A stretch of 64,000 nucleotides of DNA from Candidatus Daviesbacteria bacterium RIFCSPHIGHO2_12_FULL_37_16 (GCA_001776785.1 MFDF01000023.1:60432-124431), one strand, 5' to 3'; numbered from the stretch's first letter, positions 10,880 through 47,898 are shown. Notes: generated by a model not told the origin, from the sequence alone. A program made the numbers and translations.

Positions 10880-10908
10880 AATCCCCCCAAGTTTGGGGGG
10901 ATTTTTTT
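10880..10908 (+). terminator. Rho-independent terminator (ATCCCCCC-loop-GGGGGGAT then T7)
   Basis: Perfect 8-bp GC stem then TTTTTTT. Also sits just downstream of the convergent comM. Confidence 0.6.
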
Positions 10909-10946
10909 AGAGATTGCCACGTCGCTTCGCTCCTCGCAATGACGGT
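10908..10946 (+). repeat. Family-1 repeat copy (AGAGATTGCCACGTCGCTTCGCTCCTCGCAATGACGG)
   Basis: See 44031-44068. Located immediately after the terminator T-run. Confidence 0.6.
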
Positions 10947-10964
10947 TTGGCTGGAGAGATGTAG

Positions 10965-12494
10965 TTAAGCATCTGATTTAGCCCTATATTGGAGGGCTTC
11001 TGCAATGTGGTGCTGTTCAATATGTTCTGAATCTGCTAGATCTGCAATGGTTCTGGATAATTTTAATATCCTGTGATAACTTCTGGCTGATAAATTCATC
11101 TGGACTATAGCTAATTTTAATAAATCCAAAGCTTCTTTTTTAATTGTGCAAAACTGTTTAATTTGGGAATTATTCATCTCTGAATTGGTTAGAATTCCTG
11201 TTCCTGCAAACCTTTTTGACTGGATTTTTCTTGTTTTCTCAACCCTTTTTTTAATCTCTTTTGAGGTTTCAGATTTTAGGTCTCCTGTTAATTTTTCAAC
11301 ATCAACAGCTGGTACATCTAAATGAATATCTATCCTGTCTAAAAGGGGGCCTGATAATTTTTTCTGGTACCTTGAGACCTGGCCCGGCATGCAGATACAG
11401 CTTTTTTTAATGTCCCCCAAAAACCCGCAGGGGCAGGGATTTTGGGCAGCCAGCAAAATAAACTGGGCTGGGAAGGATAAAGACCCGGAAGCCCTGGAGA
11501 TAACAACATGCCTATCCTCTAAAGGTTGCCTTAGGGATTCTAAAACCTGTCTTGGAAATTCAGGCAGTTCATCTAAAAATAGGACACCTCTGTGAGAGAG
11601 AGAAACCTCACCAGGTTTAATATTATTTCCTCCACCTATAATCCCAACATAAGAAGCTGTATGGTGAGGGGCCCTAAAGGGCCTTGTTTTTATAATTGCC
11701 TCATCTTTAGAAAGGTTTCCTGAGACTGAATAGATCTGGGTGATTTCTAATGCTTCATCTAAAGATAAAGAAGGGAGAATAGAAGGGAAAGTCCTGGCAA
11801 GCATGGTTTTACCTGCACCTGGAGGGCCTTTTAATAAAACATTGTGGGCACCTGCAGCTGCAATTTCTAAAGCCCTTTTTGATTGTTCCTGGCCTTTAAT
11901 CTGGGAAAAATCATACTCATAAAGCCCTTCTTTTTCTAAATTGATTTTAGTTTTGGGCTGGGGAGTAAAGGAGACAGATTTATTCAAAAAACTTACAACA
12001 TCTTTTAAATTTTCAAAGCCATAGATTTTTACTCCATCTATAATTGCTGCTTCAACTGCATTATCTTTTGGAATAATAATTTTTTTTAGACCTAATTTTT
12101 TTGCAAGAATAGTTAAGGGTAAAACTCCATGGGTATATCTTAAAGACCCATCAAGGGAGAGCTCACCTACATATAATATATCCTCTTCTACCTTTTCTAA
12201 CTGGCCTGAGCCAATTAAAATCCCTACTGCAATTCCTAAATCATATAAAGGTCCTTCTTTGGGTAGATCTGCAGGAGCTAAATTAACAGTGATCCTTTTT
12301 GGGGGAAAGTCTGCGCCTGAATTTCTTAAAGCTGAGCGGACCCTTTCTTTGGATTCATCGATTGCTTTGTCTCCTAAACCAACAATGGAAAAAGAGGGGA
12401 GGCCTTGGGAGGCTATGTCTACTTCAATAGTGACAGGGGTTGAGTTGAGCCCTAAATTTGCACCGGATAAAACCTTGGCAAGCATTAAAAACAT
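10965..12494 (-). CDS. comM: YifB/ComM family Mg-chelatase-like AAA+ ATPase
   Basis: N-terminal Lon-like domain. Walker A GPPGAGKT. C-terminal Mg-chelatase ChlI-like region. Confidence 0.85.
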   Translation of the reverse strand: MFLMLAKVLSGANLGLNSTPVTIEVDIASQGLPSFSIVGLGDKAIDESKERVRSALRNSGADFPPKRITVNLAPADLPKEGPLYDLGIAVGILIGSGQLEKVEEDILYVGELSLDGSLRYTHGVLPLTILAKKLGLKKIIIPKDNAVEAAIIDGVKIYGFENLKDVVSFLNKSVSFTPQPKTKINLEKEGLYEYDFSQIKGQEQSKRALEIAAAGAHNVLLKGPPGAGKTMLARTFPSILPSLSLDEALEITQIYSVSGNLSKDEAIIKTRPFRAPHHTASYVGIIGGGNNIKPGEVSLSHRGVLFLDELPEFPRQVLESLRQPLEDRHVVISRASGSLSFPAQFILLAAQNPCPCGFLGDIKKSCICMPGQVSRYQKKLSGPLLDRIDIHLDVPAVDVEKLTGDLKSETSKEIKKRVEKTRKIQSKRFAGTGILTNSEMNNSQIKQFCTIKKEALDLLKLAIVQMNLSARSYHRILKLSRTIADLADSEHIEQHHIAEALQYRAKSDA

Positions 12495-12543
12495 TAAAAC
12501 ACAAAGAGCTTATATTTTAAAATACTAAGATTAAAGTTATGTG

Positions 12544-12614
12544 CTGCGGGACTAGGGCTCGAACCTAGATTAGAGGATTCAGAGTCCTCTGTACTACCAT
12601 TATACGATCCCGCA
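12544..12614 (-). tRNA. tRNA-Gln (anticodon CTG)
   Basis: Hand-folded cloverleaf. Acceptor TGCGGGA/TCCCGCA. D-loop with GG. Anticodon stem GAGGA/TCCTC, loop CTCTGAA. T-arm CTAGG-TTCGAGC-CCTAG. Discriminator G. No encoded CCA. Confidence 0.75.
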
Positions 12615-12660
12615 ATGTTTCTAACCTGTTAATTTTACCAAAAGGGGGATTAATTTAAAA

Positions 12661-13164
12661 TTATCTACGCTGGAGCTGGTTAATTTTTTTAAAGTCCCTA
12701 TAAACCCTAATCAGGTGTGCAACATTCCATCCTAAGTCTCTTAACTGCTCCCTTTGTTTGTCATCCATTCTTACAGGTCCTCTATTTTCTGATGCAACCA
12801 AAAAAGCATCTCTAATCAATTCTCTTTCGATCCCTGTAACCTCTTTTCCATGACTATCTGCAAGGTCTGTAATACTCTCAAGCATTTTAGACGCTTTCCA
12901 AACACCATGCAGGTAATGACCCTGTGGTAAAAGTTGAAAATAACCTGTTCTAACAAAATGACCAGGATCTAGTATATGCTCATTCCAATCGAGTAAAGTA
13001 CATTTCAAATCGAAAGGAAGATAACTTGCACTTAAAACTGTTTGCCTAGTTTTCTGGTACCTTTCATTAGCATTTTGTTGCGCTTGGAATGCAACTTCCA
13101 TTCTTTTTCTTTCTCTTTCATCCATAATATAGCATATTATATCAACTACTATAAGATAATTCAA
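12661..13164 (-). CDS. Hypothetical protein (167 aa; the start may be the internal Met 13 codons downstream of the first ATG)
   Basis: Clean ORF. No domain recognised. Confidence 0.4.
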   Translation of the reverse strand: MNYLIVVDIICYIMDERERKRMEVAFQAQQNANERYQKTRQTVLSASYLPFDLKCTLLDWNEHILDPGHFVRTGYFQLLPQGHYLHGVWKASKMLESITDLADSHGKEVTGIERELIRDAFLVASENRGPVRMDDKQREQLRDLGWNVAHLIRVYRDFKKINQLQRR

Positions 13165-13213
13165 ACTTAATAATCATAATTTATTATTAATTAGTTTTTG
13201 ATATACTCCAATT

Positions 13214-13714
13214 ATGAATTCTTTTTCTATTTGGATTGTGCCTTCTGGAGATGTAAAAAAGAAGCTTGAAGGGGTTATTTTAGATTTAAGCCAGAAATAT
13301 AACTCGCCAGTTTTTGAGCCTCATATGACACTTTTGGGGGATATATCAGTTGATGAAAAATCTGTACTAGAAAAGGCAAAAATTTTAACTTCAAAAATTA
13401 AACCTTTCACAGTAGAACTTGGGGAAATATCTTTTAGCACAACATATTTTCAATCAGTTTTTGTGAGAATTAAATCTAATGCAGAACTTATGAATGCTAA
13501 TTTAGCTGCAAAAGAAATATTTGGAGTTGATAATAATGTTTTTATGCCCCATATCAGTCTTTTGTATGGTGATTATGACATGGAGTTAAGGGAAAAAGTT
13601 GCAAAAGAAATTAAATTACCTTCTAATTTATCTTTTAATGTAGATAAACTTGTTATAATACCAAGTTTTCCAGAACCTAAGGACTGGAAACACTTAGCTA
13701 AACTCCCACTTTAA
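13214..13714 (+). CDS. 2H phosphoesterase family (LigT/ThpR-like 2'-5' RNA ligase / cyclic phosphodiesterase)
   Basis: Two H-x-[TS]-x motifs, PHMTLLGD and PHISLLYGD, at the expected spacing. Confidence 0.7.
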   Translation: MNSFSIWIVPSGDVKKKLEGVILDLSQKYNSPVFEPHMTLLGDISVDEKSVLEKAKILTSKIKPFTVELGEISFSTTYFQSVFVRIKSNAELMNANLAAKEIFGVDNNVFMPHISLLYGDYDMELREKVAKEIKLPSNLSFNVDKLVIIPSFPEPKDWKHLAKLPL

Positions 13715-13755
13715 ATTCTCAGTAAAATTTTTTACAAATTTAGTAAGATATTGGG

Positions 13756-14721
13756 ATGGCTTATGAATTTACCTCCTTTTTAGAGAAGAGAAGACAACAA
13801 AGAAGAAATAAAAAGATTGTTAGAATTTTAGGTTTTTCCATAGTTATATTATTTGCAGTTTTTTTTATCCCAGGTTTTCTTAGAGATAGGCCTGCAATTT
13901 TGGGAGAACTGGTTAAACCAAATGTTAAATCCACCCAGGCTACACCCACTATTGAGTCAAGTAAAAATTTAGAACAGGCTGTATCAAAAGCTTTAATTGG
14001 GACCCAGGGAGAGTATGCAGTTTATATTAAGAATTTAAAAACTAATGAATCCTTTTTTTTGAACGAACACCAGGTATTTGAGTCAGGAAGTTTATACAAA
14101 CTTTGGGTAATGGGTGAGGCTTTTAAGCAGATTGAGGAAGGAATTATTCAAGAAGATGAAGTTTTATCCCAGGACATTGCCACATTAAATAGAAAGTTTT
14201 CTATTGATCCAGAGTTGGTTGAACAAACTGAAGGAGGGATTACACTAACTGTAGCCCAGGCTTTAAACCAGATGATAACTATATCCCACAACTATGCAGC
14301 ACTACTTTTGACTGAGAAGTTAAAACTTTCTCAGGTAAAAAAGTACCTTGAGGATAATGGTTTTAAGGAATCACAGGTAGGGTCTGAAACTGAGCCTCCA
14401 AAAACTACTGCTTTTGATACAGCTTTATTTTTGGAGAAGTTATATAGGGGAGAGCTTGGCAGCAGTGAGAGCAATGTAAAGATGATGGAGCTTTTAAAAA
14501 ACCAGAAATTAAATAAAAAGCTTCCAAAATATTTGCCAGAGGGTACAGTTTTAGCCCACAAAACTGGAGAGATTGGCTGGTTTTCTCATGATGGAGGAAT
14601 TGTTTTTCAAGAAAATGGGGATTATATAATTGTAGTTTTATCTGAAAGCAGTGTACCTGCAGGGGCAGAAGACAGGATTGCTAAAATTTCAGAAGCTGCT
14701 TATCAATATTTTTCTCAATAG
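13756..14721 (+). CDS. Class A beta-lactamase-like serine hydrolase with an N-terminal TM anchor
   Basis: S-x-x-K (SGSLYK), an SDN-like ISHN, and KTG (HKTGEIG). Confidence 0.65.
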   Translation: MAYEFTSFLEKRRQQRRNKKIVRILGFSIVILFAVFFIPGFLRDRPAILGELVKPNVKSTQATPTIESSKNLEQAVSKALIGTQGEYAVYIKNLKTNESFFLNEHQVFESGSLYKLWVMGEAFKQIEEGIIQEDEVLSQDIATLNRKFSIDPELVEQTEGGITLTVAQALNQMITISHNYAALLLTEKLKLSQVKKYLEDNGFKESQVGSETEPPKTTAFDTALFLEKLYRGELGSSESNVKMMELLKNQKLNKKLPKYLPEGTVLAHKTGEIGWFSHDGGIVFQENGDYIIVVLSESSVPAGAEDRIAKISEAAYQYFSQ

Positions 14722-14723
14722 TT

Positions 14724-15638
14724 TTACTTAAGAGTGCAGAAGAGTTGGGGGAAGGAAATCCTGAAGAATCCAAAGTTTAGGGTCCTAACCCTAATCTGAC
14801 AGGATATATTTAGTCCAAAGAAGGGATTAGGGGCTGAACTAGGTGTTGCAGATGGTGAAGAGGTTGGTGTAGCTGATGGAATTGAGGTAGGTGTGGCAGA
14901 AGGGGTAGCTGTAGGTGTAGGCTGCGCAGTTGGTGAAGCTGAAGGAGTAGCAGTGGGGGTTGCACTTGGAGTTGCTGTTGGAGAGGGAGTGGCCTCTGGT
15001 TCAATGTCAGACTGGGAGTTTTGGGGCTGGGGTACATCTCTTACTACAAAATCATCTCCATTGTTATTTGTATCTTCTGCATTGCCCATGTTTATATCAA
15101 CTCCTGAGGACATACTCTGCGGGGTTGAAGAAGAGTTTGCTTTTCTTTCCAGACTCTGGCCTGATGAAGGAGTGGCAGCTGCAGTTGTTTCTGTATCTAA
15201 AGCTGTTCCAAAGCCTACTTTATCAACTAGAGTTGTGCCTGAGTCAGAAAATAAAGAGAGAGTATTATCATCTGCAATTACTCCTGATGAGTAAACTAAG
15301 TCAGCAGAAGGAGAAGCAAATGATTCATCATGGGTTATTAAGAAAAATCCATTTGAAGGGATAGTCCCTGACAAAGATGCTACCAGGCTTGTTTCAGGAG
15401 ATCCATCCTGAGGTTTTTTTGTTAATCTCCAACCTGCAAGATCTACTGGAGAGGAGGTTGGGTTATAAAGCTCAATAAATTCATCATTTGCACTACTGCC
15501 TCTGACCATAATTTCTGAAATGACTATGTTTGTGGCTGCAGCAGATTTAACTGATGTTACCTGGTGTAAGTAGATTAGGGAGAGTGTTGTTAGGGCTGTA
15601 AGAGATAAAAAGATGGGAAGGGCAGTTTTTCTCATCAA
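14724..15638 (-). CDS. Secreted lamin-tail-domain (LTD) protein with a long Ala/Thr/Pro/Ser low-complexity tail
   Basis: Signal peptide. IVISEIMVRGSSANDEFIELYNPTSSPVDLAGWRL is the LTD signature. C-terminal (ATPS)n repeats generate the spurious ORFs on the opposite strand. Confidence 0.7.
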   Translation of the reverse strand: MMRKTALPIFLSLTALTTLSLIYLHQVTSVKSAAATNIVISEIMVRGSSANDEFIELYNPTSSPVDLAGWRLTKKPQDGSPETSLVASLSGTIPSNGFFLITHDESFASPSADLVYSSGVIADDNTLSLFSDSGTTLVDKVGFGTALDTETTAAATPSSGQSLERKANSSSTPQSMSSGVDINMGNAEDTNNNGDDFVVRDVPQPQNSQSDIEPEATPSPTATPSATPTATPSASPTAQPTPTATPSATPTSIPSATPTSSPSATPSSAPNPFFGLNISCQIRVRTLNFGFFRISFPQLFCTLK

Positions 15639-15811
15639 TTTTATTTTAGTGAAGATAGGATTTTAGTCAAGACAGCAAATTTATCGGCTATTTTGAGAAA
15701 AGTTAAATTTATGTAAATAAAAGTAATAAATGTGTAAGAATTTGGTATTTTTGGGCTTATTGGGGTTGTCAAAACTAGATTTTTTGGTAAGATTGGAAGA
15801 ATAAATTATCT

Positions 15812-16972
15812 ATGGATAATATTCTAGAAACTATTAATAAATCTGGACTGAGGCTCTTAGAACCACTAACACTTTCTGAAACTTATGAGATTATTGTAAA
15901 AGAAGCAATAAGATTGGTGGATGCGGCTTATGGTTCCCTAACTTTAATTTCAGGTGACAAATTTTCTCAGGTTTATTCAACTCTCCCTATAACTGTAAAA
16001 AGACGCAAAAAAGGCTTTACATATAAAGCTTTAAAATCAAGAAAAATTTTAATAGTTAACACAGAAAAGACTGATGGTTTTCTAAAACTCTATCCAGACT
16101 ATCAAAATTTAGGAATAAAATCGGTTGTGTTGATCCCTTTGTTTTACAAAAAAGAGGCTATTGGAGTACTAGCAATAAATTCTTTTAGAAGTGAACATTT
16201 TAACAAAAGAGAGCTTGATATTTTACAGCTGTTTGGATCTTTTGCCACTTTAGCAATAAGAAAAAATCAACTTTATGATGAGGTTAAAAAAGCTTTAGAG
16301 ATAAGAGATCTTTTTATATCTATGGCTGCTCATGAATTAAGAACTCCATTAACTTCTGTAAATGGATATATTCAGCTTTTGAGAAGCAAACAAACAAATT
16401 CTAATACCCCTGAATCTAGATGGATAGAGCAACTATATGGTGAGAGTTTGAGAATGACAAGTTTAGTAAATGAATTATTAGAGATAAACCGAATTAGATC
16501 GGGGAAGTTAAATTTTATTTTAAAGGAGTGCCACGTTGGTCAGTTAATTAGAAAGATAGAGAATGATTTGAAAGTTTCTTATCCTAACAGAAAATTTGTT
16601 ATTGAAGATCAGACAGGAGATAGATCCGATTTGGTGATTGGAGATTCAGATAAAATATCCCAAGCATTGTTTAATTTAGTAGAGAATGCTATTAAATTTT
16701 CGCCAGAGAGCACTCCAGTTGTCATGAATTTAAAGAATAAAAGTGGGAATTTGATTGTACAAGTAAAAGATAAAGGTGTAGGAATTCCTAAAAAGGATTT
16801 GGATTTAATTTTTAGAGCATTTCAGCAGGGAGAGCATAGTAGGGAGGGTTTAGGTTTGGGACTTTATCTTGTGAATAATATTGTTGAGAATCTGCGAGGA
16901 AATATAAAAATATCTTCTAAAATAAACAAAGGAACAACAGTAGAGGTTATTTTTCCACAAGCAAGAACATGA
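15812..16972 (+). CDS. Cytoplasmic sensor histidine kinase (GAF + HisKA + HATPase_c), no TM
   Basis: H-box AAHELRTPLTSV. N-box NLVENAIKFS. G-boxes DKGVGIP and GLGLGLYLV. Confidence 0.8.
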   Translation: MDNILETINKSGLRLLEPLTLSETYEIIVKEAIRLVDAAYGSLTLISGDKFSQVYSTLPITVKRRKKGFTYKALKSRKILIVNTEKTDGFLKLYPDYQNLGIKSVVLIPLFYKKEAIGVLAINSFRSEHFNKRELDILQLFGSFATLAIRKNQLYDEVKKALEIRDLFISMAAHELRTPLTSVNGYIQLLRSKQTNSNTPESRWIEQLYGESLRMTSLVNELLEINRIRSGKLNFILKECHVGQLIRKIENDLKVSYPNRKFVIEDQTGDRSDLVIGDSDKISQALFNLVENAIKFSPESTPVVMNLKNKSGNLIVQVKDKGVGIPKKDLDLIFRAFQQGEHSREGLGLGLYLVNNIVENLRGNIKISSKINKGTTVEVIFPQART

Positions 16973-18042
16973 CAGAATCTATTCCAGAAGTAAAAAAAAT
17001 TATAAGACGTAATTCTGCATTATGGTTTGAACCCATAATGAGAGTAGAAGGACTACCTTTAATTGAACATCTTCAGGATAGGAATCCCCAACATTTTAAT
17101 AAGTTAACTTATTTGAGCGCCAGTTCTTATGGAAGAGCGCAGAGGTTGAAAGAGCAGATAACAATAGAGATTGATATTTTAGGGTTAACGGGTTTAGCAA
17201 AATCTCTTCTTAGAGAAGAACTTTGTAATTTTTTTGAACCGATCGGACCAACTTTTACACATGATTATGAAGTGTCTATTGCTTTAGCTACGTTGCAAGG
17301 AAAAGTAAAAAATCCTAGTGGTCAGAGGACAGAGGAGGAGTTTCAAAGATCAAACGAAGAAGATAATAGGTTAATTAGTCTTTTTTTGGATCATATTGAG
17401 GTTAACAAGTTTTTTGTTCGAGAAAAACCTGGAATTACTCAGGATCCCTTTACGAAAGCTGGGTCTGTTAGAGGAGACTGGAGTTTTGATAAAAGGTTTA
17501 GGCATAGAAGGTCTCTTTTCGACATAATCATGGGAGGTGAAGAGGAGTTTAGAAGAGCCAATGTTTACAGGAGGGCAGTTTTAGCCAGTGAGACTAAAGA
17601 TGCAAATTGGAGTTCTGGTTATAATGCTTTCGTTCAGCATTCTAAGGCTGCAGCCCTACAGATTTATACTCTAGCAGGGCGCGAAGAAGGAATGCGCTAT
17701 GAAGAGCTTGATAAATACAAAGGAATGCCCCTGGAAGAAATTGGATCTTATTTATATAGAGAGGAAGGGGCGATGGTGGAATTTATAAGAGATGTACTTA
17801 GCAAGAGAGTCTCTCTTTTTCTTCACGGTGCCTACAATTCAGAGAGAGTGATATTTTTTTGCAATGAATTAAAAGAGGATTGGTCAACAGCTTTCAAAGG
17901 ATACTCAAAAGTTGCCCTGAATTCCAGGTTGGGCATACACAGAGCTTTGTGGAAACATTCTCAAAAAACAGGAGATAAAAGTTTAGGAGCTGAACTTAAA
18001 AGTATGAAGGTTCCAGAATTAATAGAGATAGAAGAGAGGTAA
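16969..18042 (+). CDS. Hypothetical protein (357 aa) translationally coupled to the histidine kinase (ATGA overlap)
   Basis: 4-nt start/stop overlap with the kinase gene. No domain recognised (a weak R-x4-H near the C-terminus). Confidence 0.55.
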   Translation: MTESIPEVKKIIRRNSALWFEPIMRVEGLPLIEHLQDRNPQHFNKLTYLSASSYGRAQRLKEQITIEIDILGLTGLAKSLLREELCNFFEPIGPTFTHDYEVSIALATLQGKVKNPSGQRTEEEFQRSNEEDNRLISLFLDHIEVNKFFVREKPGITQDPFTKAGSVRGDWSFDKRFRHRRSLFDIIMGGEEEFRRANVYRRAVLASETKDANWSSGYNAFVQHSKAAALQIYTLAGREEGMRYEELDKYKGMPLEEIGSYLYREEGAMVEFIRDVLSKRVSLFLHGAYNSERVIFFCNELKEDWSTAFKGYSKVALNSRLGIHRALWKHSQKTGDKSLGAELKSMKVPELIEIEER

Positions 18043-18047
18043 GGAAT

Positions 18048-18911
18048 ATGATAGAAAGTTGGCAAGGGTCTAAACCAGTTTTTTTGTTGGACAATCAAAA
18101 AACTTTAACCCAGCATGTAATACATGAAAGAAATAGAAATCACCAACAGCCACAAGATTATAGTTATGATGATTATTTATTAGTCGAAAAGATGGTTGAT
18201 TGTTTGCGAAGAGAACATTGGGGGGAAATTTCTAAGGATAGGATTAATAGAGAAGATGCTTTATTTTTTCAAATAAGTCTTTTAGATTTAGCTATTTCAA
18301 AAGAAATTGATATTAATGATCTTGGTAATGGTTTTAATTTGATGGAATACTTGTTAAAAGCACCAAAAAAAGATGGAATATCTTCTATACCTAGTATTAG
18401 TTCATCCTCAAATGATCAAATAACAGATTGGAAATTAACCGATGAAGCTAAAAGTTTAGTTAAAATGATTCATGATGATTTAAAATGCCCACAGTTTGTA
18501 GTTACAGGCATTGGTATCGATCAGAGGACAGAGCTATTTGAAAATTTTACTAAGCAAGGAGTTCTGGAATATTTAGATGATCCGCAATTTATATTACGAC
18601 TAGGTAGGATTGGTTCTACACATATTCACAAAGCATTTGTGAATGCCGCAGTGCGCAATCTAGGAGAGCCTACAATTCATGTGGATGACGATCCCAATAC
18701 AATAGGAACAGTACAAGCGCTTGTTGGTGGTGCGCATGTATTAGTTTCAACACCAGAAGAGGTTGAGTTCTATACTAGATCTAGAGGTTTAGACTCGATA
18801 AAAAATCAAAAATCAGGACCCATTTTTCAAAAAGGAGTAGATGGAGATACTATGCTGGAATTAGCTCATAAAGCCTATGATTGGTGGCGAGATCAACCAG
18901 CTAGTCTTTGA
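18048..18911 (+). CDS. Hypothetical protein (287 aa)
   Basis: 5-nt gap after the previous gene with RBS GAGGTAAGGAA. Its 3' end overlaps the convergent response regulator by 11 nt. Confidence 0.55.
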   Translation: MIESWQGSKPVFLLDNQKTLTQHVIHERNRNHQQPQDYSYDDYLLVEKMVDCLRREHWGEISKDRINREDALFFQISLLDLAISKEIDINDLGNGFNLMEYLLKAPKKDGISSIPSISSSSNDQITDWKLTDEAKSLVKMIHDDLKCPQFVVTGIGIDQRTELFENFTKQGVLEYLDDPQFILRLGRIGSTHIHKAFVNAAVRNLGEPTIHVDDDPNTIGTVQALVGGAHVLVSTPEEVEFYTRSRGLDSIKNQKSGPIFQKGVDGDTMLELAHKAYDWWRDQPASL

Positions 18912-35868: not shown

Positions 35869-35880
35869 ATTTTATAGTTT

Positions 35881-35918
35881 TCTCTGGGTTCTGCCAGCTC
35901 GCTGTCACCCCTCGAAAA
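35881..35918 (+). repeat. Family-2 GC-rich intergenic repeat, short form (CTGCCAGCTCGC|TGTCACCCCTCGAAAA)
   Basis: Matches the two ends of the 105-nt copies at 37279 and 40441 with the internal ~70 nt missing. Confidence 0.5.
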
Positions 35919-35937
35919 CTCTTTACTAATCGTAACA

Positions 35938-37266: not shown

Positions 37267-37278
37267 GATAATGTATTT

Positions 37279-37383
37279 GCTCGGGGTCCTGCCAGCTCGC
37301 AGCCCCAGTTAGAAAAAATTTAAGGGACGGGGTCTATTAAATTTTTTCATTGGGGCGCCCCGCTCGCTGTCACCCCTCGCAAT
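37279..37383 (+). repeat. Family-2 GC-rich intergenic repeat, long form
   Basis: Aligns over ~105 nt with 40441-40543: GGGTCCTGCCAG...AGCCCCA...GAAAAA...TTT..GGGGCGCCCCGC...CTGTCACCC.TCG.AA. Confidence 0.6.
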
Positions 37384-38094: not shown

Positions 38095-38161
38095 AATCTT
38101 ATTTTTGCATCCTAAAAATTTTTAATCAAGAATCAGATTTTAATATGTTAGAATTTTTGTC

Positions 38162-39722: not shown

Positions 39723-39776
39723 CACAGTTAATAGCTTGATTAATTGTACACGGGGTGGTAAAAGTGAGAATTAGAA

Positions 39777-40436
39777 ATGAGTGAAAGGGTTTTTGTAGTT
39801 ATATTTTTAGTAGTAGTTGCGCTGGTTTCTGTTGGGCTTTTGGTCTCCAGGTCTATGCAGAATAACCAGGTTAACCAATCTGCCCAGAGTGCAAATACTA
39901 TTTCTCCTCCACCAAGTGCTGCGGGACAAGTAAGCCAGACACCAGTCCCAACTCCACTAAGGAAAACCTATACTGCTTACACTGGAGATGTTACTTTAAA
40001 GGAAAGACAAAATAAAAAAGCTGTAATTCAGACAAAAAAAGGGACAATTGAGTTTGAGATTTATCCAGAGGCTACTAAAGCTGCATCTAATTTTATTAAA
40101 TTAACTAATGATGGGTTTTATGATGGGATTACATTCCACAGGGTAGAGCCAGGTTTTGTAATTCAGGGAGGGGATCCTGAAGGGACTGGTAGAGGTGGAC
40201 CAGGATACAAGTTTGAGGATGAACCAGTGACTAAAAAGTATATTAAAGGGATTGTTGCAATGGCTAATGCAGGTCCAGATACCAATGGATCACAGTTTTT
40301 TATCATGCTTGAGGATAAACTGGATTTACCTCCAAAATATACAATTTTTGGGAAGGTTATAAAGGGACAAGAGGTTGTATCTGCAATTAGGGTTGGGGAT
40401 GTAATGGAAAAAGTGACGATAGAAAATTTAAGGTAG
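39777..40436 (+). CDS. ppiB: Cyclophilin-type peptidyl-prolyl cis-trans isomerase, membrane-anchored
   Basis: FHRVEPGFVIQGGDP, GIVAMANAGPDTNGSQFFI. Confidence 0.85.
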   Translation: MSERVFVVIFLVVVALVSVGLLVSRSMQNNQVNQSAQSANTISPPPSAAGQVSQTPVPTPLRKTYTAYTGDVTLKERQNKKAVIQTKKGTIEFEIYPEATKAASNFIKLTNDGFYDGITFHRVEPGFVIQGGDPEGTGRGGPGYKFEDEPVTKKYIKGIVAMANAGPDTNGSQFFIMLEDKLDLPPKYTIFGKVIKGQEVVSAIRVGDVMEKVTIENLR

Positions 40437-40440
40437 TTTT

Positions 40441-40543
40441 CTCCGGGTCCTGCCAGAGGACAGCCCCAAATGGAAAAATTTGTGGAACAGGTTCTAACAA
40501 ATTTTTCTCTCGGGGCGCCCCGCCCTCTGTCACCCGTCGAAAA
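40441..40543 (+). repeat. Family-2 GC-rich intergenic repeat, long form (second copy)
   Basis: See 37279-37383. Confidence 0.6.
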
Positions 40544-40601
40544 CAAATTTCACACTTCACTCCCTTTTAGCAAAAACTTCTCTTTAAAAATCTATGATTT
40601 G

Positions 40602-40646
40602 CACAATATATTGTATGTTGACAGGGATTACTTGTAGTGTGATAAG
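40602..40646 (+). promoter_or_regulatory. Putative nrdR promoter with an NrdR-box-like palindrome (CACAATATATTGTATG) overlapping a TTGACA -35
   Basis: 12-bp perfect palindrome ACAATATATTGT resembling the NrdR box consensus. TTGACA at 40618 with TGTGATAAG ~17 nt downstream. Confidence 0.4.
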
Positions 40647-40701
40647 TTAGTAGATGTTGGGTATGTTGAGTGTAGGTTAGGGTGAGTATACAAGATGTTG
40701 T

Positions 40702-41145
40702 ATGAAGTGTCCTTTTTGTTACAGTGAGCTTTCAAACGTTATAGATAAAAGAGCAGTAAAATCCAGCGGAGAGATAAGACGTAGAAGAGAGTGTTTAAAG
40801 TGCCGCAGAAGATATACCACTTATGAGCGGGTTTCTGCAGTAGAGCTTGCAGTAATTAAAAAGGATGGGAGAAGGGAGCCTTTTGACATTTTAAAGCTAA
40901 AGGGTGGTCTGATAAGAGCATTGGAAAAAAGACCAGCTTTTTTAGAGATTGACAGTATTGTTTCAAAAATTGAAGCAAAGCTTAAAGCAAAAGGGAATTT
41001 TGAGATAGAGAGTAGAATAATAGGACAGGTTAGCTTATCTGAACTCAAAAAGATAGATAAAGTGGCTTATTTAAGGTTTGCATCAGTCTACAGGAAATTT
41101 GAGGAACCAGGAGATTTTACAAAAGAGTTACAAAAGATTCATTGA
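40702..41145 (+). CDS. nrdR: Transcriptional repressor NrdR (Zn-ribbon + ATP-cone)
   Basis: MKCPFCYSE...CLKCRRRYTTYE...ATP-cone. Confidence 0.85.
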   Translation: MKCPFCYSELSNVIDKRAVKSSGEIRRRRECLKCRRRYTTYERVSAVELAVIKKDGRREPFDILKLKGGLIRALEKRPAFLEIDSIVSKIEAKLKAKGNFEIESRIIGQVSLSELKKIDKVAYLRFASVYRKFEEPGDFTKELQKIH

Positions 41146-41179
41146 ATTTTTTTAAAAAATAGATATATTTAATTAAGAT

Positions 41180-43828
41180 ATGAAAAAAACAAAGATTCAA
41201 ACAACAGCAATGCAGGTAGCAATAGTGGCCCCAAAGCCAAACAAAACTAATGGCCATGCAAATGGATTGACTCCTAAGAATAGAGGTTTTGAGGATAGGT
41301 TTATCTCAAGGTATGACAAAATGCCTAAAGTTCCAGAGGGTTTAGAGACTCCAACTTTTTCTGAATCTTCACAAAAAATATTAAAGGAAAGGTATCTTCT
41401 AAAGGGTGGAAATTTGGAGGTTGCTGAGACTATTGCTGAGAGGTTTTGGCACATTGCTTATGATATAGCTTCAGCGGATTTTGATTTTGGGGCTTCTGAA
41501 AAAGAGGTAATGGAACTTGCCAAAAGATTTTATGGAACTATGGTCAGGCAGGAGTTTTTACCTAATTCTCCTACTATTATGAATGCTGGGAAACAGAATC
41601 AGCTTCAATATTCAGCCTGTTTTGTATTACCTGTTGATGATTCAATCCCTGATATTTTTGACACAATGAAGTATGCAGCTATGATCCACCAAACTGGGGG
41701 GGGAACTGGTTTTGCTTTTTCCAGGATCAGACCACAGGGATCAATTGTTAAAAGGTCAGGAGGGGTTGCATCAGGTCCTGTTTCATTTTTAAGGGTTTTT
41801 GATGCTGCAACCCAATCTATTAAGCAGGGTGGGACAAGAAGAGGGGCAAATATGGGGATTTTAAGGGTAGACCACCCTGATGTTTTGGAATTTATAAGGT
41901 GCAAAGCTTTATTGGATGAACAAAACCAGCCTATTTATGATGGGATTGCCCCATTTTTGCCAGATGATAATGTTAGAGCTTACTTCAGGACTCTGCTTTT
42001 AGACAGGCAGATCTCCAATTTTAATATTTCTGTGGCTATAACTGATAAGTTTATGGAGGCTTACAAAAATGACCAGGAGTATGACCTGATTGACCCTAAA
42101 ACTAAAGAATCTGTAGGGAAAATGCGGGCCAGGGATGTGTTTGAGGAGATGGTAGAGAGAGCCTGGGCAACTGGGGACCCTGGAATGGTGTTTATAGACA
42201 GGATTAATAATTCTCCTGCTAATCCTGTACCTGATTTGGAAGAAATTGAGGCTACAAATCCTTGCGGTGAGCAGCCTTTAGGGCCTTGGGATGCATGTAA
42301 TTTGGGTTCTATAAATTTAGGAAAATTTGTTTTAGCAGATGGGTCAGATGTTGATTGGGAGGGATTAAGAAGGGCAGTAAGGGAAGCTGTACACTTTTTA
42401 GATAATGTTGTTCAGACAAACCCTTATACTTTAGAGTCTATTTATAAAGAGGTACACAATAACAGAAGGATTGGGCTTGGGGTGATGGGCTGGGCAGATA
42501 TGCTTTTTAGGTTAAAGACTGCTTATGACAGTGAAGAGGGAATAGCTTTGGGTGAAAAAGTAATGAAGTTTATAAATGATGAGGGGGTTAAGATGAGTGA
42601 GGATTTGGCAAAACTTAAGGGCCCATTCCCTAACTTTTATAAATCCAGATATAAAAATGGAACCCCCAGAAGAAATGGGACTGTGACTACAATTGCACCA
42701 ACAGGGACAATCTCTATAATTGGTGACTGTTCCTCAGGAATTGAGCCTGTATTTGCTCTTGCTTATATCCACAGGGCAAAGGGTGATGGTGGGAAGACAG
42801 GCAATGAGATGAGGCTTTTGACTATTGCTAATAAAACCTTTAGAGAGATTGGCGAGAAGCAAGGCTTTTATAATGATGCTATAGCCCAAAAAGTGATGGA
42901 TAGGGGGAGTGTAAGCGGAGTTGATGATATTCCTCTTGAGTGGCAGAGAGTGTTTGTGACTGCACCTGAGATTGAGCCTAATTGGCATGTGAAGATGCAG
43001 GCTGCATTCCAGAAAAATACAGAAAATGGGGTTTCAAAGACAATTAACCTTCCAAACTCTGCAACTTTGGATGATATCAGGACTTCATACCTTTTAGCCT
43101 GGGAAACAGGCTGCAATGGAATAACAGTTTATAGAGATGGGTCAAAAACTACCCAGGTTTTGAATGTAGGTTCAACTATAAATACTAAAGGTGAAATAGC
43201 TTCAGGGCTTGGTATAAAAGAAGAAGAGGTAGACCACAGCTTAAGTGTGTCACAGGACTCATTTGTTTCAAGGCCAATGATTTTGCGGGGCAGGACTTAC
43301 AGGATCCAGACTCCAATTGGGGAAGGATTTATAACTATTAACAGGGATGAATCTGACCAGCCATTTGAAGTATTTATAACTGTGGGTAAGGGTGGAACTC
43401 ACACTTTAGCTGATGCTGAGGCTATGGGGAGGTTGGTTTCACTTTCCTTGAGGCTTGGGAGAAGTGGGGGGACTATAAAACCTAAAGATGTAGCCCAAAA
43501 GATTGTGGCACAACTTAGGGGCATTGGGGGGGCATCCCATGTAGGATTTGGGAAAAATAGGGTGATGAGTTTAGCTGATGCTATAGCTAAGGCTTTAGCT
43601 GAGGATTTAGCAATTGGGGCAACAACTGGGGAACAGCCTGAACCTTTGCCTTTAAATCTAACTGAAGATCCAGTTTCTGCCTCACAAACATCACTGGTTG
43701 ATGATGTGATGACTCATGCAAGTATGGCTTCAAAAGGAGCAGATCTTTGCCCAGAGTGTGGACAAGCTACTTTTGTAATGGAAGAAGGCTGCCAAAAATG
43801 CTATAGCTGCGGCTACTCTAAGTGCTAA
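41180..43828 (+). CDS. nrdJ: Class II (adenosylcobalamin-dependent) ribonucleotide reductase
   Basis: 882 aa. NrdJ-type catalytic core (NPCGEQ, active-site Cys/Glu context). C-terminal Zn-ribbon CPECG...CQKCYSCG. Confidence 0.9.
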   Translation: MKKTKIQTTAMQVAIVAPKPNKTNGHANGLTPKNRGFEDRFISRYDKMPKVPEGLETPTFSESSQKILKERYLLKGGNLEVAETIAERFWHIAYDIASADFDFGASEKEVMELAKRFYGTMVRQEFLPNSPTIMNAGKQNQLQYSACFVLPVDDSIPDIFDTMKYAAMIHQTGGGTGFAFSRIRPQGSIVKRSGGVASGPVSFLRVFDAATQSIKQGGTRRGANMGILRVDHPDVLEFIRCKALLDEQNQPIYDGIAPFLPDDNVRAYFRTLLLDRQISNFNISVAITDKFMEAYKNDQEYDLIDPKTKESVGKMRARDVFEEMVERAWATGDPGMVFIDRINNSPANPVPDLEEIEATNPCGEQPLGPWDACNLGSINLGKFVLADGSDVDWEGLRRAVREAVHFLDNVVQTNPYTLESIYKEVHNNRRIGLGVMGWADMLFRLKTAYDSEEGIALGEKVMKFINDEGVKMSEDLAKLKGPFPNFYKSRYKNGTPRRNGTVTTIAPTGTISIIGDCSSGIEPVFALAYIHRAKGDGGKTGNEMRLLTIANKTFREIGEKQGFYNDAIAQKVMDRGSVSGVDDIPLEWQRVFVTAPEIEPNWHVKMQAAFQKNTENGVSKTINLPNSATLDDIRTSYLLAWETGCNGITVYRDGSKTTQVLNVGSTINTKGEIASGLGIKEEEVDHSLSVSQDSFVSRPMILRGRTYRIQTPIGEGFITINRDESDQPFEVFITVGKGGTHTLADAEAMGRLVSLSLRLGRSGGTIKPKDVAQKIVAQLRGIGGASHVGFGKNRVMSLADAIAKALAEDLAIGATTGEQPEPLPLNLTEDPVSASQTSLVDDVMTHASMASKGADLCPECGQATFVMEEGCQKCYSCGYSKC

Positions 43829-44030
43829 GAGGTGGTTTCCAAAGTTAAACTTATACCAAGAGAGGGAATTTTTACCTCATGACCTTTTGCTAAATCTTCA
43901 GCCACTGCCATAGCTGCTAAAGCACCAGCAGGATTTTTAGTATGAACTTTAAACTTGTTTTCTGGTGTCTTAGTTATGGGTTTTTCTATTTCCAAAGTTA
44001 GGATTATCAGTATTTTTGCTTGTGATGTCA

Positions 44031-44068
44031 ATCGTCATTGCGAGGAGCGAAGCGACGAAGCAATCTAG
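44031..44068 (-). repeat. Family-1 repeat copy (reverse orientation) containing the exact 25-mer CGTCGCTTCGCTCCTCGCAATGACG
   Basis: 25/25 identity to 10919-10943 on the opposite strand, with further flank similarity (AGATTGC...). Confidence 0.6.
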
Positions 44069-44070
44069 TA

Positions 44071-44104
44071 TTGAGATTAATCGTTTTTTTCGTATAATTC
44101 CATC
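44071..44104 (+). promoter_or_regulatory. Putative sigma70-like promoter (TTGAGA-16-TATAAT) giving a near-leaderless cobA transcript
   Basis: The -10 hexamer ends 6 nt before the ATG at 44105. No RBS. Confidence 0.35.
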
Positions 44105-44683
44105 ATGTCTGATAAAAAAAAGGCTGAGCAAAAAAAGAGAGTTAAGTTTAAAGAGACTACTAAGGGGCTGGTGATTTTATATACTGGTGAGGGGAAGGGG
44201 AAGACTACTGCTGCTTTGGGACTTGCACTGAGGGCTGCAGGGTATAAAAGGAAGGTTTTAATAGTCCAATTTGGGAAGGTTTGGTTTACAGGGGAACTTG
44301 AGGGTATAAAGATGCTTGAACCCTTTGTAAAGATTGTGCAGGGTGGGATTGGGTTTGTGAATATTTTTAATGATAAATCCAGTTTGGAAGATCATAGGAA
44401 GGTTGCTTTAAAGACCCTGGAGTACTTAAAAAAAGAGATAATTTCCGGGAAGTGGGATGTTGTGATTGCAGATGAAATTATAGGAGCATTAGCTGGGAAT
44501 GTTTTAAAATTTGAAGAAGTCAGGGATTTTATAAAATCAAAGCCTGAGAGAGTGGATTTGGTGATTACAGGTCACCATGCAAAAAAGAATTTAATTGCTT
44601 TGGCAGATTTAGCTACTGAGATGAAACCCATTAAACACCCTTATGAAAAAGGTTTTCTTGCAAAACCTGGAGTTGATTATTAA
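44105..44683 (+). CDS. cobA: Cob(I)alamin adenosyltransferase (CobA/CobO/BtuR type)
   Basis: P-loop GEGKGKTTAALG. The family is ~190 aa. Adjacent to the B12-dependent nrdJ. Confidence 0.75.
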   Translation: MSDKKKAEQKKRVKFKETTKGLVILYTGEGKGKTTAALGLALRAAGYKRKVLIVQFGKVWFTGELEGIKMLEPFVKIVQGGIGFVNIFNDKSSLEDHRKVALKTLEYLKKEIISGKWDVVIADEIIGALAGNVLKFEEVRDFIKSKPERVDLVITGHHAKKNLIALADLATEMKPIKHPYEKGFLAKPGVDY

Positions 44684-44812
44684 CTATTTATTACAGTTTG
44701 GATTTAAGATAAACTAAGAACAGTCTAAGTTTTTGGAGGGTTGACCCCGATAAAGTTCGGGGTTGACAGATTTTAGCACTCATGTTAGGATACTGCTAAT
44801 TGATTTGAAAAT

Positions 44813-47224
44813 ATGGCAACTTTAGATCCTATTACACATCCATTAAAACTTTCAAAGAATATGCCTGTTGCTCCCCTTAGGGGCACAGTTATATTCCCCC
44901 AAAACACAGTCCCTATTGTTTCAGGCAGACCAAAGTCCAGATCAGCTATTGACAGCGCCTGGGCAACCAACAGATTAATTGTTTTTGTAGCCCAAAAAAA
45001 TGACAGGATTGATGACCCATCTCCTGAGCAGCTTTACCAGGTTGGCACAGTCTGTTTAGTCAAAAGAGTATTAAAAGTTGATAATGAATACCAGCTTTCT
45101 GCAGAAGGACTTGTCAGAGTCTATTTAAAAAATTTCACCCAAACAGACCCTTATTTAGAGGCAGAAATAGAAGAGATTCCTGAACTTTATGAAAAAAATG
45201 AAGAAACAGAAGCACTTTTGAGGACAGTTAAAGAGCAGTTAAGAAGGTATCTGGAGCTTAATGGTAATCCCCTTTTTGATGTTTCAGCTGTAGCTAACTG
45301 GCCTCTTTTATCCCAAAGTGAAGATCCAAACCAGATTGTAAATTCTGTTTGTCAGATGATTGAGTTTAAGACTATTGATAAGCAGCAAATTTTAGAGATG
45401 GTTTCTGCAGCAGACAGACTGCAAAGAGTATCTGAGCTTTTGGCAAAAGAGATAAGGATTTTGGAGATTTCCCAAAAGATTTCATCCCACACCCAGGAAA
45501 GGGTATCCAGAATGACTAAAGAAGCAATCTTGAGAGAGCAGATGAGGTCAATTGAGGAAGAGTTGGGTGAGTCTGGAGAGAATGTAGAGATTAGGGAGTT
45601 TGAGTTAAAGATAAGAAAGGCTAATATGCCAAAAGAAGTCAGGGAAAAAGCTATGAAAGAACTCTCAAGGCTTTCTAAGATGAGTTCCTATAACCCGGAG
45701 GCTGCATATATTAGGAATTATTTGGAATGGTTGACTGACCTTCCCTGGAAATCTGCAGGAAAGACTAAGTTAAATATGAAGAAATCCCAGGAAATTTTAG
45801 ATGATGAACATTATGGACTGAAAAAAGTTAAAGAAAGGGTGATGGAGTATTTAGCTGTCTATAAACTGGCAGGAAAACTGCATGGTCCAATCCTTTGTTT
45901 TGTGGGACCTCCCGGAACCGGAAAGACCTCTATTGGGAAATCTATTGCTAAAGCTTTAGGCAGAAAGTTTGTGAAAGTATCCCTTGGTGGAATCAGGGAT
46001 GAGGCTGAGATAAGAGGCCACAGAAGGACTTATGTTGGGTCAATGCCTGGAAGGGTTATCCAGTCTATAAAACAGGCTGGTACTTCAAACCCTGTGTTTA
46101 TGCTGGATGAGATAGATAAAATTGGGGCAGATTATAGGGGTGACCCATCCGCTGCGCTTTTGGAAGCTTTAGACCCTGAGCAAAATAATTCTTTTTCTGA
46201 CCATTATTTAGAAGTTCCATATGATTTGTCTAATGTCATGTTTATAACTACAGCAAATATGCTTGATACTATTCCCCCAGCCCTTAGGGATAGATTAGAG
46301 GTTATTCCATATCCTGGTTATACAAGAGAAGAAAAGTTTAATATTGCAAAGAGGCACTTAGTACCAAAAGTTTTAGGCTCCCATGGTTTGCCTGAAAAAT
46401 TAAAGATTGGGTTTGATGATGATGCAATCCATCAGGTAATTGATGGATATACCAGGGAAGCAGGGGTAAGAGGTTTAGAAAGAGAACTGTCTGCAGTTGT
46501 TAGGAAAATTGCCAGAAAATATGCAGAGGGTGAGATTAAAAAAGAATATGAGATTACTGAGCAGGAAATAAGAAAACTTCTAGGGCCTGTTAAATTTATC
46601 CCTGAGCTTGCAGAGATTGAAGATATGGTTGGTGCTTCAACAGGGCTTGCCTGGAGTGAGGTTGGAGGATCTGTGATGTTTATTGAGGTTACCCTAATGC
46701 CTGGTAAAGGTGCAGTGCAGCTGACTGGTCAGCTGGGTGAGGTGATGAAAGAGTCAGCCCAGGCTGCAATGAGTTATGTCAGGACAAACTGGTTTAGAAT
46801 GGGATTGCCAGAGAAATTTTTCCACAAAGTAGATGTACATGTACATGTACCAGAAGGTGCTGTACCAAAGGATGGTCCATCTGCAGGTATTGCACTAACT
46901 ACTGCAATAGTTTCTGCTTTTACTAAGATTCCTGTCAGGAAAGATGTGGCTATGACTGGTGAGGTAACTTTAAGGGGTAGGGTTTTAGAGATTGGGGGGT
47001 TTAAAGAAAAAGTTTTGGCAGCACACAGAGCAGGGGTTAAAGTGGTTATTGCACCAGAGCATAATAAAAAAGACTTAGAGGATATTCCAGAGAATGTGGT
47101 AACTGATTTAGAGTTTCATTTTGTAAAACACATGGATGAAGTATTAGACTTAGCTTTAGTTAGATCTCCAAAACCAGGTTCTTTAAAAAGATCACCTGTA
47201 GTCCCAAGACCAGCTGTAGCATAG
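44813..47224 (+). CDS. lon: ATP-dependent Lon protease
   Basis: Lon N-domain, AAA+ (GPPGTGKTS), protease domain with DGPSAG and K dyad. Confidence 0.9.
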
Positions 47225-47252
47225 TAATTATCCTCAGGGTATAATTCCCAAC

Positions 47253-47810
47253 ATGAGTGAAAGAAAATTGACCTTTGATGAGAGGCTTGATTTGCTGAGG
47301 AGATACAGAAAGCGTAAGGTTCAGTATTTAGAAGAATTGGATCCGAGGAAAGAAGGTTTACTTAGAAACGCAGAAGCTGGATTTATTGGATTGTCTGCAC
47401 TTTGCGGGGCATTAGTTTTTGCTTCAATCTTTGGGGTAGCTGCAGCTGATTACTTAAAAACCAGGCCTGAATTTTCCTTTTTAAAAAGTGAACCAAGTAT
47501 AATTGCCTATTGTACTAATGAAAATGGTGAAGCAGGAACGCATGTTGCTATTAAGATAAGTTTTAGGCCATTTAATGATTTAAGTGAAGGTGTAACCGTT
47601 GTTACAACAGCCAGTTCATCCAACAAAGCAGAGGTTATTTCGCACAGTCAATTTTACTCTGAAGTGCCTATAGAAGATACGATCCATGTTAAGAGGAGTT
47701 TTAGAGGAAGAGTTATGCTATTTAGAAGTGAAAATATTTATGATTCAACAAAGAGATATACAGATGATTCAAAGAAGTTATATGAAAAAGATGTGGATAT
47801 TAAATGCTAA
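47253..47810 (+). CDS. Hypothetical membrane-anchored protein (185 aa)
   Basis: Single TM. No domain recognised. Confidence 0.45.
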   Translation: MSERKLTFDERLDLLRRYRKRKVQYLEELDPRKEGLLRNAEAGFIGLSALCGALVFASIFGVAAADYLKTRPEFSFLKSEPSIIAYCTNENGEAGTHVAIKISFRPFNDLSEGVTVVTTASSSNKAEVISHSQFYSEVPIEDTIHVKRSFRGRVMLFRSENIYDSTKRYTDDSKKLYEKDVDIKC

Positions 47811-47857
47811 CTCCCCCTTGACTAAACTTAGTCTTATAGTGTAGATTTACCGCCAGT

Positions 47858-47898
47858 AGAGATTACTTCGGGTCAAAGTTGACCCTCGCAATGACAGG
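47858..47898 (+). repeat. Family-1 repeat copy (AGAGATTAC...GGGTCAAAGTTGACCCTCGCAATGACAGG) followed by T8
   Basis: Shares AGAGATT.C and CCTCGCAATGAC.G with 10908-10946 and 44031-44068. Contains the hairpin GGGTCA-AAGT-TGACCC. Confidence 0.5.

Follow-up and report, generated by a model that had tools for sequence, protein, structure and literature searches.

Three intergenic repeats of a Candidatus Daviesbacteria genome as likely orphan members of a CGTC-tagged repeat family linked to Ssn-type GIY-YIG nucleases

The window analysed here is a 64,000-nucleotide (nt) stretch of the genome of Candidatus Daviesbacteria bacterium RIFCSPHIGHO2_12_FULL_37_16 (GCA_001776785.1, MFDF01000023.1:60432-124431), and positions are counted from its first letter. 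Three of its intergenic regions carry a GC-rich repeat, and we describe the identity of this element, its distribution, and its association with genes for the single-strand-specific GIY-YIG nuclease Ssn. The three copies are as follows.

10911..10944, minus strand: copy 1, read on the minus strand as CGTCATTGCGAGGAGCGAAGCGACGTGGCAATCT (nhmmer E 1.9e-14)
44033..44066, plus strand: copy 2, CGTCATTGCGAGGAGCGAAGCGACGAAGCAATCT, then AG (nhmmer E 8.5e-15)
47860..47896, minus strand: copy 3, read on the minus strand as TGTCATTGCGAGGGTCAACTTTGACCCGAAGTAATCT (E 0.021, 5' half)

Copy 1 is a singleton between two convergent 3' ends, that of a small zinc-ribbon (DUF5679) gene, followed by a terminator hairpin, and that of a ComM/YifB-like gene (10965-12494, minus strand). 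Copy 2 is found between a class II ribonucleotide reductase (RNR) gene ending at 43828, together with a small minus-strand open reading frame (ORF), and cobO, which starts at 44105. Copy 3 lies between an orphan 185-aa gene (ending at 47810), whose protein yielded no homologues, and an H+-pyrophosphatase (H+-PPase) gene starting at 47925, and is located 28 nt upstream of the start codon of the latter. This gene context confirms that all three sites are intergenic, as an initial annotation of the window had stated; the orientation of the copies relative to the flanking genes is inconsistent. The contrast in composition that had drawn attention to them is also real, the element having ~60% GC and the window 34-40%.

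Copies 1 and 2 are near-identical 34-nt units with mismatches at 2/34 positions, both in a variable NR dinucleotide. They have in common an exact 25-mer, CGTCGCTTCGCTCCTCGCAATGACG, at 10920-10944 (+) and 44033-44057 (-). Both occurrences had been reported, the first with a coordinate off by one, and the conservation of the repeat at three sites had been judged not to be due to chance; the 25-mer has zero matches among dinucleotide shuffles. The likeness that was seen to extend into the flanks amounts to 37 nt at 92% identity (10911-10947 versus 44030-44066). Across all three copies, CTCGCAATGAC has exactly three exact occurrences in the window, where 0.23 would be expected at up to one mismatch. 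A profile hidden Markov model (nhmmer) built from 180 distinct copies of other genomes found no sites in the 64-kb window beyond these three, which are all singletons and form no doublets, and the 10 kb upstream of the window contain no further copy.

Aligned with its flanks, the element is sharply bounded: the conserved part, (A/G)GATTGC-YN-CGTCGCTTCGCTCCTC-GCAATGAC-(A/G), is set in unrelated surroundings of very different GC content. The unit, YGTC-ATTGC-GAGGAGCGAAGCGACGNR-GCAAT-CY, is oriented, asymmetric and 33-37 nt long. An unpaired YGTC tag stands at its 5' end, a 5-bp outer stem, ATTGC/GCAAT, encloses the interior, and C(C/T) forms the 3' tail. The interior is of two types, either a conserved G.A-rich segment (GAG GAG C GAA G CGA CGN), in which the variable N is A, T or C and never G, or a replaceable perfect hairpin. 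Copy 3, which had been recognized as a diverged copy with an internal hairpin, is a regular member of the second type. It has AGATTAC...CCTCGCAATGAC in common with copies 1 and 2 and keeps the tag, the outer arms (with one G-T position) and the tail, so that both ends are retained; its inner hairpin differs, a perfect hairpin GGGTCAAAGTTGACCC (GGGTCAA-CTT-TGACCC) standing in place of the canonical interior.

We searched 1.78 Mb of fetched loci for hairpins of the form GTC-stem-interior-stem'-C, read on the GTC strand. In the superfamily obtained in this way, the outer arms change together (ATTGC/GCAAT, ATTCC/GGAAT, ATCGC/GCGAT, ATGCC/GGCAT, ATGGC/GCCAT), and the interiors are either GAGGAGCGAAGCGACGNR or swapped perfect hairpins bracketed by GAG...CGNR, examples being GGCC-GAA-GGCC, CCAGTG-CGCA-CACTGG and GGGCAC-GAA-GTGCCC. 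The canonical interior itself may be arranged as two GAG/CGN modules, each a G-C pair with tandem G.A, that close a GCGAAGC mini-hairpin. Among the listed variants, the dinucleotide before the 3' arm is AA in ~112 copies, TG in ~46 and CG in ~33, and never begins with G, a bias that would be consistent with a G as the pairing partner on the other side of the helix, or with the decay of CpG to TpG.

The element is widespread. Its 21-nt core, CGCTTCGCTCCTCGCAATGAC, has exact matches in 94 IMG/VR viral contigs and, among the matches listed, in more than 120 stretches of a species-representative genome collection. Exact cores are present in Alphaproteobacteria, Bacillota, Bacteroidota, Nitrospirota, Planctomycetota, Spirochaetota, Chloroflexota, Omnitrophica, Atribacterota, Marinimicrobia, Desulfobacterota and Ca. 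Daviesbacteria, and among the hosts are Bradyrhizobium, sphingomonads, Oscillospiraceae, Bacteroidales, Nitrospiraceae, Treponema and Anaerolineales. Full-length, unannotated copies are present on plasmids of Methylosinus, Methylocystis, Novosphingobium, Calothrix, Trichormus and Legionella. The initial annotation had named a lack of further copies, together with a lack of structural covariation, as grounds against its claim; copies are in fact found across bacteria. Neighbouring copies elsewhere mostly form inverted doublets; among 148 pairs whose ATCC ends face each other, 126 are spaced by no more than 60 nt. Some viral contigs carry two or three copies (e.g. L040, 3314-4050; L002, 5466-5907), and phage genomes bearing sites for a host nuclease of single-stranded DNA (ssDNA) could matter for phage replication or defence. 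In the literature, 11-12-mers of the element matched only unrelated animal, plant or pathogen papers, and the other substrings that were searched matched none.

An all-against-all clustering of flanking ORFs at 218 element-seeded loci, in which spurious high-GC ORFs and related phage contigs made up most of the output, revealed no transposase or other recurrent protein family, and a GIY-YIG gene was the immediate neighbour at four of the 218. The link to GIY-YIG proteins became clear because the genes between inverted pairs were examined, and then through a reverse test from the protein side. Three of the four inverted element pairs that are 300-550 nt apart enclose a small GIY-YIG ORF (L202, L107) or a frameshifted remnant of one (L166), and at a further locus (L151) a GIY-YIG gene is directly beside the element. 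The domain in the bracketed ORFs is Pfam PF01541 (E 1e-14 to 1e-16). Homologues of the protein number more than 8000, and none bears a name other than 'GIY-YIG nuclease family protein'; its sole match among solved structures is the uncharacterised UPF0213 protein 1zg2 (E 4.6e-6), and NCBIfam gave no informative match. A search for the nuclease in viral contigs returned only three weak loci.

Two homologues picked regardless of their DNA context each turned out to have elements on both sides. In Chryseobacterium, one element lies 23 nt before the ATG of the gene and another overlaps the stop codon; in Ruminococcaceae, where gyrB and gyrA flank the gene, eight elements precede it and a single one follows. 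The eight-element Ruminococcaceae array (L224/L222, 968-1474) alternates ATTGC-type and ATTCC-type elements in opposite orientation with a period of ~144 nt, and resembles a bacterial interspersed mosaic element in which two Ssn-motif families stand beside one nuclease gene. Overall, inverted copies on both sides of a single-domain GIY-YIG gene are present in several phyla, among them Bacteroidota, Bacillota and the candidate phyla radiation (CPR) (L202, L107, L166, L232, L224, L245, L246), forming a cassette of ~400 bp, element-ssn-element, that encodes a protein of 92-102 aa.

For the reverse test, we took 80 metagenomic loci encoding Ssn homologues and sought a YGTC-hairpin-C element within 150 nt of the gene. 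Of 72 loci that could be assessed upstream, 52 had an element there, as did 54 of 67 on the downstream side. Both sides had copies in the correct orientation at 32 of 59 loci, whereas chance would give ~1.2% per 165-nt window. The pairing also appears to be cognate: Ssn proteins flanked by ATTGC-type elements are 62.9% identical among themselves versus 54.6% across types, a difference reached in 0 of 2000 permutations. The 5' GTC and the 3' C are present in all three window copies and in all listed Ssn-flanking elements. By association, these data show a partnership between the element and Ssn.

A related protein has been characterised in Neisseria. A subset of Neisseria dRS3 repeats, termed NTS (CGTCATTCCCGCGMAVGCGGGAATCYRG), flanks the gene ssnA together with related motifs, the Ssn-related motifs (SRMs), and SsnA is a 94-aa single-domain GIY-YIG protein of the cd10448 group (Chenal et al., Nat Commun 2025, PMC11893778). 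As described there, SsnA binds just one of the two strands of NTS, and this only as ssDNA, cuts a few nt upstream, and does not bind RNA; the three nt 5' of the NTS palindrome (GTC) are critical for cutting and the 3' C for binding (PMC11893778). In N. meningitidis, SsnA limits transformation with DNA that carries NTS, and NTS-ssnA-NTS as a unit is similar to an insertion sequence (IS) (PMC11893778). An element-flanked GIY-YIG protein of our set matches an N. gonorrhoeae 94-aa ORF, which is surrounded by nine exact NTS repeats, with a tblastn E of 4e-15 at 43% identity over 92% of the query, and so lies well inside the homology threshold of that study (tblastn E < 1e-10 to Neisseria SsnA; PMC11893778). 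The CPR protein, that of a Daviesbacteria relative, is 49% identical to the same ORF.

The likeness extends to the DNA. As in SRMs and NTS, the element is oriented, 20-50 nt in size and dispersed in many copies, with YGTC directly 5' of a stem that starts with AT and C directly 3' of it; as in NTS-ssnA-NTS, inverted copies bracket a single-domain GIY-YIG gene for an SsnA homologue of ~95 aa (E 4e-15, 43-49% identity). Unlike NTS, with its 8-9 bp stem and 3-5 nt loop, the element has a 5-bp outer stem around an interior of 23-26 nt, which is a conserved G.A-rich segment or a second hairpin. The host also differs, since it is a CPR bacterium and the main text of PMC11893778 makes no mention of CPR, and the window copies are orphans. 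The published degenerate SRM pattern, HGTCWYN(0-2)YYVSBRHN(0-5)WNVSBRGN(0-2)RNCYNB (PMC11893778), is a search heuristic and not a biochemical definition. It matches near 23 of the 80 Ssn-homologue loci, versus the roughly three-quarters at which the structural search finds an element, and pattern-based surveys therefore probably undercount such elements.

The element likewise belongs to the superfamily of CGTC-tagged repetitive extragenic palindromes (REPs) that Di Nocera, De Gregorio and Rocco defined, with the families CGTC-1 to CGTC-4 (BMC Genomics 2013, PMC3733652), which bears out the earlier suggestion of an element like a REP or a miniature inverted-repeat transposable element (MITE). 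CGTC REPs have a CGTC tag (TGTC or CCTC being tolerated), a stem starting with A-T and a short 3' tail, and are mostly head-to-head dimers, in many copies per genome, with no associated transposase (PMC3733652). Here the tag is CGTC in copies 1 and 2 and TGTC in copy 3; stem positions 1-2 are a complementary A-T (ATTGC...GCAAT in copies 1 and 2, ATTGC...GTAAT in copy 3); the short unpaired tail starts with C; and the copies are intergenic and without an associated transposase. Head-to-head dimers predominate in other genomes, unlike in the window. The tails are CTC, CTA and CTC in the window, and CC(A/G) or CT(C/A/G) in other genomes, against a CGTC-REP consensus of CCA, of which the first C is conserved. 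Since the stem and loop dimensions depart from those of CGTC-1 to CGTC-4 (stem 8-9 bp, loop 4-5 nt), we place the element in the superfamily only, and in none of its four described families. CPR, Bacillota and viral contigs are outside the five phyla reported for CGTC repeats (PMC3733652).

The history of copy 2 can be followed among relatives. The CobO protein of the window is identical to Ca. Daviesbacteria EKD91482.1, KKQ08718.1 and OGE16668.1, and the window region is also present in GCA_001777025.1. Relatives that are ~80% identical in nucleotide sequence (L245, L338, L339) have the same synteny, NrdR, RNR, the small minus-strand ORF and cobO, and in these the stretch from the small ORF to cobO holds a 95-aa ssn gene with one element before it and an inverted one after it. 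Homology of the window to L338 and L245 continues across the left element as far as 44070 and begins again at 44146, within cobO. This makes copy 2 the orthologue of the left terminal repeat of the cassette, the gene and the right repeat being missing. It is identical to the repeat of the relative at 33 of 34 positions, in flanks that are ~80% identical. In a relative of ~75% identity (L246), the cassette is present and inserted 11 nt after the RNR stop codon; in one of 73-77% identity (L333), the site is empty, with 70 nt from the RNR stop to the cobO start. More distant relatives have other genes at this site, including a Y1 transposase gene, and none of these elements. At one of them (L247, Ca. 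Daviesbacteria GCA_016176465.1, ~72% identical), the IS200-like Y1 transposase gene occupies 5260-5904 and the RNR gene (946-4596) has an intein bearing a LAGLIDADG domain; the RNR-cobO locus looks like a preferred site of selfish elements. The initial annotation had also named a match to a known IS terminal repeat as grounds against its claim. In spirit such a match exists, since an IS-like cassette has these repeats, inverted, at its two ends.

We conclude that the three sites in the window are very likely orphan copies of one family of CGTC-tagged REPs or Ssn-related motifs, and putative targets of Ssn. The earlier idea of a shared protein-binding site would then be right in substance, with the partner probably being a single-strand-specific GIY-YIG nuclease and not a regulator of double-stranded DNA (dsDNA). 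By analogy with the Neisseria and Wolbachia enzymes, the YGTC strand would be recognized as ssDNA and cleaved just 5' of the tag. In such a mechanism, this strand would become single-stranded during replication, repair or DNA uptake, Ssn would bind the folded element and cut a few nt 5' of the tag, and the other strand, dsDNA and RNA would not be substrates. A Daviesbacteria ancestor would have carried the cassette between the RNR gene and cobO, the strain of the window would have kept the left repeat (copy 2) only, and copies 1 and 3 would be dispersed singletons, analogous to solo REPs. The copies could be cut at present if an ssn gene is located elsewhere in the genome.

Several observations weigh against this interpretation. 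No ssn homologue was found in the window and the 10 kb upstream (74 kb; tblastn, E up to 10), which is the reason for calling the copies orphans, and the published SRM pattern has zero matches in the window, thus missing all three. The cleavage mechanism is extended to this Ssn subfamily from other enzymes. Canonical copies are not predicted to form a stable ssDNA hairpin, their folding energies being -3.6 and -4.4 kcal/mol (z ~0), unlike Neisseria NTS with -8.9 kcal/mol (z -3.9); nearest-neighbour energy models give no credit to the putative G.A-paired interior. Within the canonical family, a change is more often single and unpaired (17 copies) than compensatory (2 copies), so that support for pairing comes from the comparison between families, and this is partly circular because complementary arms were a search requirement. 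Covariation within the canonical family is uninformative, as the arms are identical in 247 of 268 core-anchored copies.

Other features in the neighbourhood of the copies bear on what else the element might be.

10880..10903, no strand assigned: terminator-like bidirectional hairpin (CCCCCCAAGTTTGGGGGG plus T-run) that abuts copy 1; context only
44071..44098, plus strand: promoter-like site TTGAGA-16-TATAAT, matching 11/12 consensus positions (consensus match only), 5 nt downstream of copy 2 and upstream of cobO
44031-44003, minus strand: divergent promoter-like site beside copy 2 (consensus match only)

The copies had been described as lying next to T-runs. T-runs are indeed nearby, and they belong to the terminator hairpin at 10880-10903 or to AT-rich spacer, outside the element. 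We rejected an intrinsic terminator as the identity of the element, since no terminator-like call overlaps any copy and 10880-10903 is a separate hairpin.

The strongest competing account, which we regard as possible though doubtful, is that the copies belong to the Ssn/CGTC-REP family by descent and are now inert relics, neither bound nor cut, and decaying in a strain that has lost ssn. The deletion of ssn and the right repeat at the orthologous locus, the lack of ssn in the 74 kb, the occurrence of three singletons without doublets, and the G-T position in the outer stem of copy 3 all fit such decay. What decay does not readily explain is the preservation of the copies: copies 1 and 2 differ only within the variable dinucleotide, copy 2 is far more like its counterpart in the relative than its flanks are, and likeness so well above that of the flanks argues for constraint or recent origin. 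An ssn gene elsewhere in the genome is also quite possible, given that ~74 kb were examined. A role at the RNA level, as a terminator, an attenuator, an mRNA-stabilising 3' hairpin or a small RNA, is the classical proposal for REPs. We consider it unlikely here, even though every copy is situated between genes, close to an end or a start, and copy 3 has an inner hairpin whose folding is better than that of shuffled sequence (z ~ -2). In other bacteria, most REPs follow genes, and many are considered to be transcribed (PMC3733652), but the orientation of the window copies relative to their flanking genes is inconsistent and none of them received a terminator-like call. Copy 2 folds as RNA no better than shuffles on its two strands (z -1.45 and +0.08), and the stronger scores around copy 1 are the contribution of the adjacent terminator hairpin. 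At the gathering threshold, Rfam found two tRNAs only, and the weak matches of a permissive scan all fall on that same hairpin and none on the element. With the characterised Ssn enzyme reported not to bind RNA (PMC11893778), the small structured RNA proposed initially finds no support.

We give very little weight to the copies being a dsDNA operator through which a transcription factor coordinates adjacent genes such as cobO and the H+-PPase gene. Copy 2 does lie between two divergent promoter-like sites and copy 3 just upstream of the PPase start codon, but copy 1 is between convergent 3' ends, the element is oriented and asymmetric with no dyad, and the same 33-mer occurs in unrelated contexts in more than ten phyla and in phage contigs, with only ssn recurring as a neighbour. 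Equally improbable, and disfavoured in our view, is a REP or REPIN mobilised by a REP-associated tyrosine transposase (RAYT, an IS200-like Y1 transposase), or a MITE that belongs to a classical insertion sequence. Its attraction is the REP-like size, the inverted doublets, the intergenic dispersal, and the Y1_Tnp gene at the RNR-cobO site of the ~72% identical relative. The latter gene, however, has none of these elements around it, no Y1 or other transposase recurs beside the element in the 218 loci, the tag is YGTC and not GTAG, and CGTC REPs lacked an associated transposase in the survey of Di Nocera et al. (PMC3733652). The REP/REPIN-RAYT system nevertheless has the same logic: it too has a single-copy nuclease gene bracketed by inverted hairpin repeats, ssDNA-hairpin recognition, and many solo or doublet copies across intergenic DNA. 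Unlike it, the present system has a GIY-YIG and not an HUH/Y1 transposase fold. A REPIN sequence is also specific to its lineage and passed on vertically, whereas the present 33-mer is almost the same from phylum to phylum, with partner proteins at ~50% identity.

On the reading that we prefer, putative Ssn targets, the repeats are explained by a known system, and what is new is the sequence and structure family, the host group and the presence/absence series. A formerly anonymous GC-rich repeat thereby gains a biochemically testable identity as a recognition site of an Ssn-type ssDNA nuclease, and the Ssn/SRM system is extended to CPR bacteria (Ca. Daviesbacteria) and to many viral contigs. 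The succession of cassette, solo repeat and empty site at one orthologous locus bears on whether NTS-ssn-NTS units are mobile. More speculatively, the ATTGC-GAGGAG family may be a distinct class of Ssn targets, defined by a short clamp stem and a G.A-mismatch-rich interior and missed by the SRM pattern. Its cassette might then be mobile and active, an IS-like element that a GIY-YIG ssDNA nuclease drives and that spreads horizontally, with the solo copies as MITE-like offspring. The near invariance of the element over more than ten phyla, CPR and phage contigs, with nucleases that have diverged to ~50% identity, is the background to this tentative proposal. If it is true, the filled, solo-repeat and empty RNR-cobO states would be snapshots of insertion and loss.

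The repeat also has consequences for annotation, as it explains contig breaks and spurious 'hypothetical proteins' (e.g. VIARSEATKQS) in many genomes. The element is very often less than 100 nt from a contig end (e.g. L101, L105, L111, L138, L141, L158, L338), and many Ssn homologues are on contigs of 0.5-2 kb; the repeat evidently breaks metagenome assemblies. One Ssn homologue, on the Planktothrix agardhii plasmid NZ_LR882964.1 (L243, 801-1085), has its own TGTCAT...ATCT hairpins and is situated in a defence island, between a type IIL MmeI-like restriction-modification gene and DISARM drmA.

Within the window, a BrnT/CopG-type toxin-antitoxin pair is encoded at 9752-10289 (minus strand), ~0.6 kb from copy 1. 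A second, unrelated family of GC-rich intergenic repeats comprises five units in three intergenic regions (35878-35922, 37276-37382 and 40437-40542; e.g. TTTGCTCGGGGTCCTGCCAGCTCGCAGCCCC and GGGGCGCCCCGCTCGCTGTCACCCCTCGCAA), often within TTTTC...GAAAA; an 18-mer common to two of its units has no exact match in IMG/VR. Tandem repeats of the type GTTGG(N)GTTGG are found inside long ORFs (1158-1257 and 14833-14998), and the GTTGG-repeat ORF at 620-2299 (minus strand), along with two ORFs beyond the window start, shows faint or weak dockerin-like Pfam matches.

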